A stretch of 63,450 bases of DNA, the filler included, from Reclinomonas americana ATCC 50394 (lineage: Eukaryota): assembly GCA_048213135.1 (NCBI GenBank). It is 10 parts of 10 records of this genome, joined end to end, with 100 filler letters (N's around TTAATTAATTAA, not from the genome) between each part and the next. Parts side by side here need not be neighbours in the genome. Positions count along the whole stretch, not along the records: positions 1 to 9,448 come from AFZH01016806.1; positions 9,549 to 13,551 come from AFZH01016807.1; positions 13,652 to 16,819 come from AFZH01016808.1; positions 16,920 to 18,630 come from AFZH01016813.1; positions 18,731 to 35,336 come from AFZH01016814.1; positions 35,437 to 39,129 come from AFZH01016815.1; positions 39,230 to 58,262 come from AFZH01016816.1; 3 more parts are not named here. One strand, 5' to 3'. Position 1 is the stretch's first letter. Each line of letters opens with the position of its first letter. Positions 1-54,210 of the stretch are shown one piece after another. Both the position numbers and the translations under genes were made by a program. Below the pieces are notes generated by a model. That model saw only the letters and a program-made list of their open reading frames with translations, was not told the origin of the DNA and searched no databases.

Positions 1-3000
1 ATGAGACGTAAGTTTTGCCGCTTGTCTTGCAGGGCTCGCAAGCGCGTAGCATTGCTTATCGGCAACTCTTGCGATGGCGAGGGAACGCATGGGTTACTGA
101 GAAACCCACCGCGTGATGTGGGTACGTCGATGCATACTTCGGCACGCAACTCCCGTTCACCGTCGGGTTTGGTCTCTCACACACGCACACGCAGACGAGT
201 TGCAACCAGTGCTTGCGGACTACGGCTTCCACGTTTGCTCGCATGTCGATGTGGTTGGCGATCGCATGCACTCCGTAGTTAAGAGATTTGTGGGCGAGTT
301 CGTGAATGAGGAGTGCGAATGTGTGCTGTTTTTTTTCTCTGGTCACGGTCTGGCGATTGAACGAGACTTGTTGCTCCTCCCAAGTGATGCCAACCGCATT
401 TTTGAATCACGCGTGGTGAGGTTGGCGGTCGCTTTGTTGTTTCGCGGAAGTTGTATTTACAACTGCAATCGCAGACAAATGGCGACAAATCACTGGCGCT
501 TCTCCGGTTCTGCATGCCGGAACTGTGCAACAATCGATCAGAGCATACGGTTGTGATTATGTTGGCGAACTGTTGCCGCTCAACTAACAGGTGCGTGTGG
601 TTTGATACATTGAAGCGTTTATTGTCGCAATTGTGTTAAATCACGCGGTCATTGTGTGCTCGGTCACAGCGCTGTTCGCTCGGTAACCAGAGACGATGTG
701 GAGAAGAATGTATTTGCTGGTTTAGCATGCTACCACGGTTGCGGAGCGCACGAGGGTGGTGAGTTATTGGCCTACTTTGCTTATCTGCAGGTTGCTGACT
801 TCTCGTCTCAGACTTGCAAGCATCTGCGTCTCCCTACGTGCGGGCGCTGGTTCACGCCATCAAGGGGCACGGGCATTTATCACTGCCTGCATGGCACGAC
901 AAAGTTAATTGTCGGCTGAGAGAAATGCAACAACAGTCTTTCGAACAAGACTCCGAATATCATCATGACCTAAAAGAAACCGAACTGGTTGAGTTTCGAC
1001 TGTGTTTGCATCCCGGTAAGCAGTTCGACCTCCTACGATCATGAGTGGAGTATTGTTGTATGTGCCGAAATCGCCGCTGCTCTTTTGCCTGTGAAGTATT
1101 GAGTTGTGTGCCTTTGGTGTTACTGCCGTTCGTAGTTCCCTATGTATTATTAGCGACGGTTACGACTGCTTACTGTACTGTGCCGCAGGCGTACACGCGC
1201 TGTGTCTTCGGGAGCTCTCGTTCTACCAACACGACGAGAGTGTGCGCAAGGACATGCAGATGTATGTGCCACTGCTGTGCTCCCGTGATCGTGACGTCTC
1301 GTCGAGGGACAAGATGACGGATCTGTTGTCGGAGGTGGATGCTTTCCTCTCCGAAACCAACACCACGCAACGTGTGTTGGTGCTGCTTGGCAACAGTGGA
1401 GCCGGCAAGACCACCACCATGTCGGTGCTGGCCGAGCGAGCCTGGCGACAGTGGCAAACGAGAGAGAGTCGTCGAGTGCCTGTGCGGGTGCCTCTCGGTG
1501 CGCTGCGCAATGCGGATGAGCGACTGTTGGAGGAGGCATTAGAACGCCTGTCGCACAAGTTACGATTGAAGCCGGATGTGCGAAAATTGAAGGAGGAGCC
1601 TCTCCTGTTGTTGCTTGACGGGTACGACGAGTTGTACCGTGGTGGAAATCTGTTTGTGACGAACCAGCTGGATGTGTGTCGCGATGTGAAGGTGATAATC
1701 ACTTGTCGCAGCGATTACGCACTGACGGCACTGGGTGGAGTGACGCAGTATCGACGGTACTTTGCACCGGTGGATGCAAGCGGTCAGTTGTGCATGCAGC
1801 AGCTGATGGAGCGGCACATTGCACCATTCAATATGGAGCAGATCGAGGAGTACTTCAAGCGACTGGTGCAAGTGGGTGGTGACGATGATGATGATGGTGA
1901 AGTGCGATGGTCAACTTCCGAGCAGTACATTCGTGCATTGAAGAGTGTGCATGGACTGGATGCATTGGTGTCGAATCCATTCCTACTGGCAGTGGTGGCT
2001 CGTGTGTTGCCTCAGTTGGTGGCGAGTGGTGCACAGCGACCTACTCGGCGTGATGTATTTGATCGATTTATTCGACAGTGGATTGTGAGGGAGCAGGAGA
2101 GGCAGACGCGTCTCGGTGCAGAGCGTGTGCCGAGTGAGGAGACGTGTCTGGCATTCTGTGAGGGACTTGCTCGCTTGATGCATGAGAGGAATGTGGTGCG
2201 TGTGACTGTGACGGAGAGTCGGTCAGGGGAGGAGGATGACTTTGGCGGTGCGCCACTCGCCTTGCGACGAGTGGAGGAGGGACCGTTTGACAAGTTCCTC
2301 GGCCCCAAGAACCAGCATGTGCGAGCGTGCTGTCCGATTGTGCGACGGTATGCGACGACGCAGTGGGGATATGTGCACCTGTCGTTGCTGGAGCACTGTG
2401 TGGCACGTCATGTGTTTGCATGGGAGACGTGGGATGAGGAGAGGAGGTTGACGATGCAAGATGTGCAGCAGCATGTGCTGGCAGTGCGACTGCTAAATGA
2501 TCGACCATCGCTGGTGGAGCAGATGGCCGAGGTGGTGCGACGGTCTCCTGCACTGCCAGCGAGACTGTGGGAGGTGATTTATATGTCACGGGAGATGGAT
2601 GAGGTGCGATTGGTGACGGCAGCCGCCAATGCAGCAACGGTGTTGTGTGTGGCGCAAGTGTCGTTCAGTGGGCGAGACCTGTCGGGAGTGCGAGTGAGGG
2701 GTGCGGATTTGAGGGATGCGGTGATGCACAGGACGGATTGGAGGGGAGCAGATTTGCGAGGGGTGAATATGTGCATGGCGTATGCGAGGGAGGCGGATTT
2801 CAGGGATGCGGATGTGACGGATGTGAAGTGGCCGAGGAGACCGATGGTGGGGCACACTGATCAGGTGAGATCTGTTGCTGTTACTCCCGACAGTCAGTAC
2901 ATTGTGAGTGGCAGTGGGGACAAGACTTTGCGAGTGTGGTCGGTGGCAAGTGGCGAGGGGGTGCGTCGACTGGAAGGCCATACGATAGCGGTGTCTGCAG

Positions 3001-52700: not shown

Positions 52701-54210
52701 GTGCGCCGACTAGAAGGCCACACGAGTGTGGTGACTACAGTGGCAGTGACACCCGATGGCCAGCACATTGTTAGTGGTAGTGGAGACAAGACAGTGCGAG
52801 TGTGGTCCCTGGCGAGTGGGGTAGAAGTGCAACGGTTCGAGGGGCACACTGCCGCAGTATACACCGTCGCCGTCACTCCCGATGGACATCACGTCGTCAG
52901 CGGGAGTGGAGACTCGACTGCGCGAATTTGGTCACTGGCGAGTGGCGGAGAAGTGCGGCGGTTGGAGGGACACACTGATCATTTGAATTCCATTATGGCT
53001 ACTCCTGATGGTCAGTATATCGTGAGTGGGAGTGGAGACTTGACAGTACGAATGTGGCCTGTGAAAGTTGATGAAGGAGTACGACGGTTGGGTGGACACA
53101 CCGGATCGGTACATTCAGTTGTGCTCACCCACGATTGTCAGCATGTTTTGAGTGCCGGTAATGATGGCACTGTGAGGCTGTGGTCTCTGTCAACAGGCGA
53201 GGAATTGTGGAAGGTGGCAGGACAGTCCTCCTTGTTTACTGTTTCTCCAGATGGTCAAATCGCTGTGAGTGGGAGTGAGAACGGATCTATTCTGGTGTGG
53301 TCTTTGGTTCGTGGAGAAGAAATGAGACGATTTGAAAGGCACAATGGTGAGGTAATGTGTGTCGCCGTCTCTCCCGATGGTCAGCACATTGTGAGCGGAG
53401 GCGATGACAAGTCAGTGCGCGTGTGGTCATTGGCGAGTGGAGATGAGTTGCGGCGGTTGGAAGGTCACACGAGTGGTGTTATGTGTGTCGTCGTCACTCC
53501 CGATGGTCAGTACATTGTCAGCGGAGGTGTTGACACCACAGTGCGAGTGTGGTCACTGGCTAGCGGCGAGGAGGTGCACCGACTGGAGGGACACACTGAC
53601 TGGGTGCAGTCTGTCGCCATCACTCCTGATGGCCAGCACATTGTGAGCGGAGGTGATGACGACACAGTGCGAGTGTGGTCACTGGCTTCCGGCGAGGAGG
53701 TGCGCTGCCTGGAGGGACACGCTGGATTCGTGCTGTCTGTTGCCGTCACTCCCGATGGTCAGCACGTCGTAAGTGGGAGTTATGACAAGACAATGAGAGT
53801 GTGGTCACTGGTGAGTGGAGAGGAAGTGCTACGACTGAAGGGACACACGGGTGGGGTGTGGTGTGTCGCCGTCACTCCTGATGGTCAGTTCATCGTGAGT
53901 CGCTGTGATCAAGGAGAAGTACGAGTGTGGTCTCTGGCGGATGGGGAGGAAGTGCCTCTTGATGAGCAAGCGGATCTAGTGACTCCAGCGGCGGAACGTG
54001 TGACTTATCTTCGCTGCATGGCGTTCGGTTCTGCGTGCACCGCCCCTGTGTCCGGCAGCTCGATTCAACTGATGTGTCGAAACACTCGCGGGCTGGTGGA
54101 ACTTATCATTGGCACCGTCTTGCCCGATTTCACCAACGCGCTTGGTGCTGTGGGTGGCGGACGGGAGCGACGACGAGGGTGAGGAGGACGAAAGAGAATT
54201 GGTTCGGTGA
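49789..54210 (+). pseudogene. NLR5: Ubl-HEPN intact, about 390-bp deletion removing Walker A with a frameshift; WD40x14 frame open
   Basis: Exons 49789-49794, 49863-50161 and 50343 onward. At about 50964 catcgactg (HRL) joins directly to aggaacc (EP of EEPLLLLLDG), so the equivalent of 43461-43851 is lost and the frame stops at 51018. A second small deletion near 54160 alters the C-terminus. Confidence 0.85.

Follow-up and report, generated by a model that had tools for sequence, protein, structure and literature searches.

The window analysed here, a stretch of 63,450 bases taken as a whole, carries a cluster of five genes (designated G1 to G5) that we read as paralogous NLR-like STAND receptor genes, built on a common plan of an N-terminal effector, a NACHT switch, a pentapeptide beta-helix spacer and a double WD40 propeller as sensor; the probability of this reading is put at about 0.6. 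Three events appear to have taken place on one chassis within about 54 kb, namely an exchange of the effector, an exchange of the sensor and a loss of the P-loop, and the copies concerned are 76–86% identical at the DNA level.

Five long open reading frames (ORFs) form the core of the cluster (Table 1). Each of them contains 11–14 stretches matching the Pfam WD40 family, and in the N-terminal parts of G1, G3 and G4, which were scanned with the WD40 region removed, NACHT (PF05729) scored 36.3, 35.5 and 40.8 bits, respectively, against a cut-off of 26.7, with Pentapeptide (PF00805) present in all three. Walker A motifs have the form GxxxxGK[ST] and Walker B motifs the form hhhhDGxDE; both were read in the translations of G1–G4, where they are intact as GNSGAGKT[TI] and LL(L/F)LLDGYDE. 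In G4, used as the reference copy, the pentapeptide spacer is located between the helical region of NACHT and the WD40 repeats. The C-terminal tail that follows the repeats had no Pfam match at E ≤ 10. The tripartite layout of G2–G4, with an N-terminal domain of 207 residues (hereafter N-domain), NACHT, pentapeptide and WD40 modules, is encoded within one uninterrupted ORF, and because N-domain and NACHT share this frame their fusion needs no splice model; in G1 the layout is obtained via a modelled splice. The predicted architecture of G1–G5 is that of NLR-like STAND proteins, in which an N-terminal effector is followed by NACHT, pentapeptide spacer and WD40 repeats. The original prediction, made from the same DNA, had announced five NACHT-pentapeptide-WD40 genes, and this is borne out by the five ORFs, by the WD40 repeats in all of them and by NACHT and Pentapeptide in the parts scanned, except that the fifth copy is not intact, having suffered a deletion of 391 nucleotides.

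The genes are real paralogues, because synonymous divergence among the copies (dS) amounts to 0.29–0.43 and because G2 and G3 lie on one contig (18731–35336) and G4 and G5 on another (39230–58262); G1 is placed on a third (1–9448). Alleles or assembly duplicates, which the original prediction had named as one of the dangers to it, were rejected on these grounds. Purifying selection acts on all modules, with omega of about 0.15 in NACHT and the helical part, 0.25–0.32 in the N-domain and 0.36–0.47 in the WD40 part.

The broken copy, G5, has no equivalent of positions 43461–43851 of G4, and its frame is shifted. The deletion spans from AVRELSFYQ to just before Walker B, Walker A being lost and Walker B kept. 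The frame of the N-domain ends in a stop at 51018, and the segment 50973–54182 is open in another frame with no ATG. Downstream of the deletion omega is 0.18–0.19 and no stops are found, and therefore the break is either recent or an assembly error. The most likely status of G5 is that of a recent pseudogene or of a remnant with the effector only. A tRNA-Asp called by ARAGORN at 50373–50456 sits within the coding exon of G5 and is regarded as a false call.

The exchange of the effector is seen in G1. In self-BLAST, its similarity to G2, G3 and G4 (76.5–85.6% nucleotide identity) begins at exactly 1209, with nothing upstream, and the alignment places the onset of homology at GCTGTG, just 5' of RELSFYQHDES; an abrupt start at this motif, at about 1210, had been predicted and was confirmed in this way. 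At base 1209 the effector of G1 has, on this comparison, been swapped. The segment upstream encodes a caspase-like module, as also foreseen: Peptidase_C14 (PF00656) matched the stop-to-stop fragment 101–553 (151 residues) with 33.8 bits against a cut-off of 21.4 (E 3.6e-8), fragment residues 29–97 being aligned to profile positions 24–101, i.e. to the exon 195–415. The last caspase exon gave a weak collinear match to the same family (E 0.12, 12.5 bits, profile 178–223); it should be noted that the scores refer to separate exon pieces of G1 and not to the spliced domain. In the spliced translation, FFFSGHG is followed about 55 residues on by MLANCCRS, and we take SGHG and CCRS to be the catalytic His and Cys motifs of caspases. 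A search of PDB sequences with the caspase exon returned a chance match only, and a word-seeded search among longer proteins found no relatives in 40 candidates.

The exons of the module and the chassis exon (1189–4877) join with consistent phases into one open frame of 1469 residues. The junction between caspase and NACHT is a splice model and, like the exon 1 junctions of the other genes, has to be counted against the proposed architecture. G1 might instead be no fusion at all, with a caspase-only gene stopping at 1042–1044, inside the proposed last intron, and a headless NACHT-WD40 gene starting, for example, at the Met codons in 'DMQMYVP'. Such a pair would fit the unspliced caspase frame, which stops soon after 1015, and the NACHT ORF, which has no ATG from the upstream stop to residue 51. 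We hold it to be quite improbable, however, as the donor (GTAAGC, 1016) and the acceptor (CCGCAG, 1188) are in the same phase and yield the single long frame, the gap is just 173 nucleotides against 0.5–1 kb or more between the other genes, all four remaining introns of the module are likewise GT-AG and of similar size, and C14-NACHT-WD40 fusions exist elsewhere (PMC2853523).

One base of the chassis marks both the onset of homology in G1 and the left end of the deletion in G5, the step from 43460 to 43461 in G4 corresponding to 1200–1209 in G1 and to 50964 in G5. An intron acceptor of G1 lies 12 nucleotides upstream. Distant relatives have a domain border at this place too, the alignment with a Glomeribacter protein starting at 'QHDES..MYVP'. 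Possible explanations of the coincidence are a module border prone to recombination and an intron since lost.

The head of G2–G5 is a different one, and the N-domain is with fair assurance a divergent, Swt1-like HEPN domain. We base this assignment on the invariance of the Rx4H motif, the Pfam match to HEPN_Swt1, profile comparison by hhalign and the neighbours found by a protein language model. The motif, R141-K-[AG]-L-A-H146, is invariant in four of four paralogues, and HEPN_Swt1 is the top Pfam match in three of the four, lying on this motif (E 0.043–0.12). In hhalign, the alignment of the four paralogues was compared with 24 cyanobacterial Swt1-HEPN domains (from 30 loci collected, of which two mis-cut at contig ends and four with stops in their flanks were left out), and gave a score of 24.85 (P 0.0026); the 126 aligned columns form four collinear blocks that run from the N-terminal helix as far as the Rx4H helix. 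With the query reversed the score was 14.1, and none of 206 column shuffles reached 24.85 (maximum 21.25, median 12.7). Of the 30 named clusters that are language-model neighbours in the ESM Atlas, 26 or more have members of HEPN_Swt1 (13), HEPN_DZIP3 (10) or DUF4559 (3); the last, which we assume to be the CXorf38 HEPN family, shares one cluster with HEPN_DZIP3. In a bacterial case, too, a Swt1-HEPN domain precedes an ATPase (DUF499).

A number of results weigh against the HEPN assignment. HEPN_Swt1 scored 13.1–14.5 bits, below its Pfam cut-off of 27.5; the hhalign probability was 11% only; HEPN families cover just 11–38% of the members of the Atlas clusters, and the Atlas comes with the warning that its top family can be incorrect. 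In Rx4H the Arg is followed by Lys, against the Asn called typical in PMC9646362. The AlphaFold2 model of the N-domain, built from the four paralogues, is all-helical and poor (mean pLDDT 56.8), Foldseek found no match to it in the PDB at E ≤ 0.001, and VIA-align over 48,161 chains returned generic helical matches only, the best being the C-terminal helices of an acyl-CoA dehydrogenase (Z 7.4), with a Cas13 chain (Z 6.6) at rank 16 among unrelated rows.

Along with these, no Pfam family exceeded its cut-off on the N-domain, and a phmmer search of 1.84 billion representative proteins yielded no credible homologue. Two phmmer matches (E 5.6e-6 and 3.5e-5) were judged spurious, both being long repetitive proteins with 6–8 matched stretches. 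The PDB sequence search gave a glyoxalase only (E 0.24) and PADLOC no match.

On an NLR-like chassis, the N-domain could be something other than a ribonuclease (RNase), namely a helical adaptor or signalling domain, of the sort found at the N-terminus of bacterial and fungal NACHT proteins, that recruits or activates a separate downstream executor. Its all-alpha character, the absence of a family at the curated threshold or of a credible homologue among the representatives, the generic helical bundles among fold matches and the non-enzymatic helical heads of some chassis relatives, such as NNH5, would agree with such a role. It is nevertheless rather unlikely, given that Rx4H is invariant exactly where HEPN_Swt1 aligns, that the hhalign blocks remain collinear beyond the motif with no shuffle as good, and that HEPN families dominate the language-model neighbours.

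Upstream of the N-domain, G2–G5 have an exon of 80 codons (exon 1), the donor (GGAAG/GT) and acceptor (CAG/C) of which are conserved in all four genes, with the frame kept. Exon 1 is coding, because among G3, G4 and G5 pN (0.012–0.036) is far below pS (0.16–0.27) in codons 1–36. A ubiquitin-like (Ubl) fold is unsupported, because its 80 residues have no Pfam match at E ≤ 10 and the AlphaFold2 model is poor (mean pLDDT 53), with a sole helix at 3–22; the C-terminal 'LGINSSTHLIVRL' presumably does no more than resemble the end of ubiquitin. From the 'Ubl-HEPN' head that had been proposed, the HEPN half is thus kept as probable, at scores below curated thresholds, and the Ubl half is left unsupported.

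Codons 37–52 of exon 1 (42525–42572 in G4) come in two very different versions, one in G4 and G5 and the other in G3 and G2, with pN of 0.35–0.44 and pS of 0.57–0.80 between the versions and flanking codons nearly identical. This patch of 16 codons suggests a small mosaic or conversion tract. Furthermore, a block of 21 nucleotides (CAACTCGGAG...CTCG) within the intron between exon 1 and N-domain is conserved in the four genes; AG always stands before it and GT after it, and the frame is kept whether it is included or skipped. The block may be a cassette micro-exon that adds 7 residues (SNSER.TR), and in G4 its inclusion leaves introns of 62 and 97 nucleotides.

At the other end of the chassis, G1, G3, G4 and G5 have 14 WD40 repeats and G2 has 13, with a unit of about 42 residues; 14 repeats would suffice for two seven-bladed propellers. 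Entropy, calculated from the 56 of 69 repeats that have exactly 42 residues, is 2.1–3.6 bits at positions 16, 17, 19, 20, 35 and 37, and none of the 36 remaining positions exceeds 2.0 bits. At the six variable positions omega is 0.87–1.75 versus 0.21–0.31 at the rest, a contrast that is weakened as an argument for a diversified sensor because the sites were picked by variability and their high dN is partly circular. Repeats 6–10 and 14 are positional orthologues across the genes; for repeats 2–5 the best match is often at another position, and repeats 3 and 4 of G3 are 90% identical. Mean amino acid identity of the repeats within a gene is 0.62–0.64 (0.49 in G2), and only single pairs reach 0.83–0.90.

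The sensor of G2 stands apart. Across N-domain, NACHT and pentapeptide part G2 is 79–95% identical to the other genes, and over the WD40 repeats and the whole tail 60–74% (dN 0.32, dS above 1). Because identity falls at the border between pentapeptide and WD40, the WD40 sensor of G2 comes from a more distant copy. Modules have thus been exchanged independently at both ends of the chassis, the effector in G1 and the sensor with the tail in G2, in line with the independent shuffling of modules that the original prediction had called for.

A role outside conflict would require no more than ordinary tandem duplication, G1–G5 being then scaffold or regulatory NTPases (nucleoside triphosphatases) such as NWD1 or TEP1 of animals, or else a developmental cell-death machine. 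Purifying selection overall on all modules would suit it, as would the identity of repeats within genes, which is under the 85% given for fast-evolving fungal NLR repeats in PMC4986451. Effector and sensor swaps between close paralogues, variation centred on a handful of repeat positions (omega close to 1 or higher), one freshly broken copy and two heads that would both be degradative enzymes argue against this role, and according to PMC4986451 these are traits of conflict-type NLR families; it is the least probable of the readings given here.

For the NLR-like receptors that we favour, we infer by analogy an immune or allorecognition role that would involve RNA cleavage and proteolysis. The mechanism is proposed because it is established for STAND proteins of the apoptosome/NLR type and for HEPN RNases. 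A ligand on the variable face of the WD40 propellers would release autoinhibition, NACHT would exchange its nucleotide and oligomerise, and the N-terminal heads would be gathered. In G2–G4 the HEPN-like domains would pair into an active Rx4H RNase, and in G1 the caspase-like protease would be activated by induced proximity. The outcome would be growth arrest or cell death in conflict (infection, selfish elements or non-self recognition).

A bolder proposal starts from the NACHT modules of the paralogues, which are 84–95% identical and could for this reason form mixed oligomers. HEPN- and caspase-headed copies would then co-assemble into a paired-effector NLR network, in a deep-branching eukaryote outside animals, fungi and plants, with the N-domain founding a HEPN family that cannot be linked by sequence search. 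We consider it a long shot. If true, one recognition event would fire RNA cleavage and proteolysis together, and the sensor-swapped G2 and two neighbouring WD40-only genes would widen or gate recognition.

Table 1. Positions, along the whole window, of the gene cluster, its modules and other mapped features.
Feature	Position	Strand	Remarks
Five long ORFs (G1–G5)	1104–4877; 21516–25673; 28611–33077; 42825–47135; 50973–54182	+; -; -; +; +	In the order G1, G2, G3, G4, G5
G1 Peptidase_C14 module	1–1015	+	Exons 1 (or 34)–121, 195–415, 475–590, 670–758, 812–1015
G1 introns	122–194; 416–474; 591–669; 759–811; 1016–1188	+	All GT..AG; 73, 59, 79, 53 and 173 nucleotides
G1 chassis exon	1189–4877	+	Pre-NACHT segment (RELSFYQHDES), NACHT, helical region, pentapeptide, 14 WD40, C-terminal tail
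G2	21516–26242	-	Exon 1 25989–26242; possible 21-nucleotide micro-exon 25746–25766; main exon 21516–25659; N-domain 25038–25658
G3	28611–33325	-	Exon 1 33084–33325; possible micro-exon 32998–33018; main exon 28611–32904; N-domain 32283–32903
G4, reference copy	42417–47135	+	Exon 1 42417–42658; possible micro-exon 42721–42741; main exon 42839–47135
G4 N-domain	42840–43460	+	207 residues; probable divergent Swt1-like HEPN; Rx4H is R141-K-A-L-A-H146
G4 NACHT core	43629–44120	+	Pfam NACHT E 2.6e-10, 40.8 bits, ORF residues 269–432; Walker A GNSGAGKTT, Walker B LLFLLDGYDE
G4 pentapeptide spacer	44889–45089	+	Pfam Pentapeptide E 1.8e-9, 37.4 bits against a cut-off of 20.2 (stretch scanned alone)
G4 WD40 sensor	45090–46820	+	14 repeats of about 42 residues; variable positions 16, 17, 19, 20, 35, 37
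G4 C-terminal tail	46821–47132	+	About 100 residues, acidic end; conserved among G1, G3, G4, G5
G5	49920–54182	+	Exon 1 49920–50161; possible micro-exon 50225–50245; N-domain exon 50343–51018; rest 50973–54182 in other frame
21-nucleotide block	42721–42741 (G4); 50225–50245 (G5); 32998–33018 (G3); 25746–25766 (G2)	+; +; -; -	Candidate micro-exon
WD40-only gene	40323–41738	+	Directly upstream of G4; Pfam WD40 E 6.4e-26
WD40-only gene, paralogue	47954–49372	+	Upstream of G5; Pfam WD40 E 1e-25
Linker joins	9449; 13552; 16820; 18631; 35337; 39130; 58263; 60022; 62154		Form N44-TTAATTAATTAA-N44

The two WD40-only genes lie 550–680 nucleotides upstream of G4 and G5 and share 77% nucleotide identity with each other (self-BLAST). 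Each has about seven degenerate repeats of the same 'TPDG' kind, and a C-terminal helix is conserved between them. WD40-only gene and adjoining NLR gene were duplicated as one unit, and the proteins of the WD40-only genes may act as partners, decoys or regulators. Between G3 and G2, at 27229–28149 (minus strand), WD40 fragments in two frames have the look of a decayed remnant.

As for the window itself, the nine linkers (N44-TTAATTAATTAA-N44) carry stops in six frames, and it is therefore a draft scaffold made up of ten contigs strung together; the placement and orientation of G1 relative to the other genes is not secure across the joins. Microsatellites of the (GA)n, (CA)n or (CT)n type flank most of the joins, giving rise to many long spurious low-complexity ORFs across 5–21 kb, 33–39 kb and 54–60 kb. 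The sequence is eukaryotic, as had been supposed, because it has GT-AG introns of 53–173 nucleotides with consistent phases and a split XPD/ERCC2 gene. The exons of this gene, which encodes the TFIIH helicase, were located at 60069–63450 on the minus strand (Helicase_C_2, E 4.1e-8, with a weak match to the HBB domain). Of 539 candidate proteins, 474 matched an XPD exon at E ≤ 0.001, and its closest public relatives are only 74% identical and of mixed lineages (green algae, land plants, a jakobid and others). The window's own proteins were not found in the large public protein collections searched. A probable P-loop NTPase gene lies 3' of G1, at about 5900–7685 (plus strand), with KFYITGTPGM in one frame and SKSAFGMYVLY...LYLVDG...TMTLLISSP in the next, which points to either a frameshift or an intron; Pfam gave nothing above the cut-off for it (DUF7841, E 0.041), and PADLOC gave no match. 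In a search of the window with Rfam, no RNA family reached its gathering score.

Closest to the chassis in sequence are NACHT-pentapeptide-WD40 proteins found in Mortierellomycota and in their Glomeribacter/Mycoavidus endosymbionts (8 at E ≤ 0.001, 24–29% identity). With the Glomeribacter protein (27% identity, E 4e-41) the alignment begins at 'QHDES..MYVP' and takes in the 'AAANA' pentapeptide stretch. These proteins are alike in the chassis and differ in their low identity and in having heads of their own, namely TIR, EF-hand or an N-terminal region of ~580 residues with no Pfam family recorded; none of them was seen to have a HEPN or C14 head. NNH5 with NA-iREase1 and CHAT are further heads carried by relatives. 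A CHAT-nSTAND1-WD40 relative, of the bacterial caspase/CHAT-STAND kind, was found in locus L073. Pentapeptide repeats are counted among the superstructure-forming modules of bacterial conflict systems in PMC7159879. In PADLOC, the models of anti-phage STAND systems (Avs, bNACHT) gave matches of P-loop size only, the best being mad8 (E 3.2e-4, 32 residues).

N-terminal HEPN domains on NACHT proteins with LRR, TPR or WD40 repeats have been described as clustered, expanded families, with more than 50 genes in pearl oyster (PMC9646362), and DZIP3-like and CXorf38-like HEPN domains occur with NACHT in animals and Capsaspora, bacterial HEPN-STAND proteins being known as well (PMC3710099). With such genes, for which pearl oyster, cnidarians, amphioxus and Capsaspora and their DZIP3/hRUL138-like and CXorf38-like heads served as the comparison set, the N-domain has in common that its language-model neighbours include HEPN_DZIP3 and DUF4559 clusters. 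It differs from them in staying below the Pfam cut-off, in its weak match to HEPN_Swt1 rather than DZIP3 and in the Lys in place of Asn after the Arg, and the genes of the window differ further in the pentapeptide spacer and the extra N-terminal exon of 80 residues. Nor do the XPD matches, spread over algae, plants and a jakobid, identify the host as an animal.

Metacaspase-NACHT-WD40 proteins with 13 or 15 WD40 repeats are reported from cyanobacteria in PMC2853523, and G1 resembles them in having a C14 head, NACHT and 13–15 WD40 repeats in one polypeptide. Unlike them, G1 is eukaryotic and has introns, and its chassis is 76–86% identical in DNA to that of HEPN-headed paralogues. Fungal NLRs combine heads, NODs and repeats, with diversifying repeat positions (PMC4986451). 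The NWD/HNWD proteins (HET-E/D/R of Podospora) are like G1–G5 in NACHT and WD40, in a common NOD with different heads and in hypervariable repeat positions; according to the same paper, hypervariable positions lie on the binding face, and the proteins act in non-self recognition and cell death. Repeats within a gene are 62–64% identical in G1–G5 and more than 85% in the fast-evolving fungal genes (PMC4986451), and G1–G5 have a pentapeptide spacer. No HET domain was among the Pfam matches of the N-terminal parts (E ≤ 1) or of the head exons (E ≤ 10), and the main text of PMC9815663, on effector domains of fungal NLRs, makes no mention of HEPN, caspase or RNase.

The view that the locus does not correspond to a described system could thus not be upheld, as HEPN-NACHT-repeat proteins, metacaspase-NACHT-WD40 proteins and combinatorial fungal NLRs have all been published (PMC9646362, PMC3710099, PMC2853523 and PMC4986451). 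Every element of the design is already in print, and the locus is not a new kind of system. What is new here is the host lineage, a head that is a sequence orphan and the clean module swaps side by side. The cluster broadens the known range of HEPN-NACHT and caspase-NACHT designs and carries the NACHT-pentapeptide-WD40 chassis beyond Mortierellomycota, their endosymbionts and cyanobacteria. A pair of the G1/G4 type suits the question whether the identity of the head alone sets the output of a receptor, and the cluster as a whole is a compact natural example of NLR-type receptors rebuilt by module swapping.

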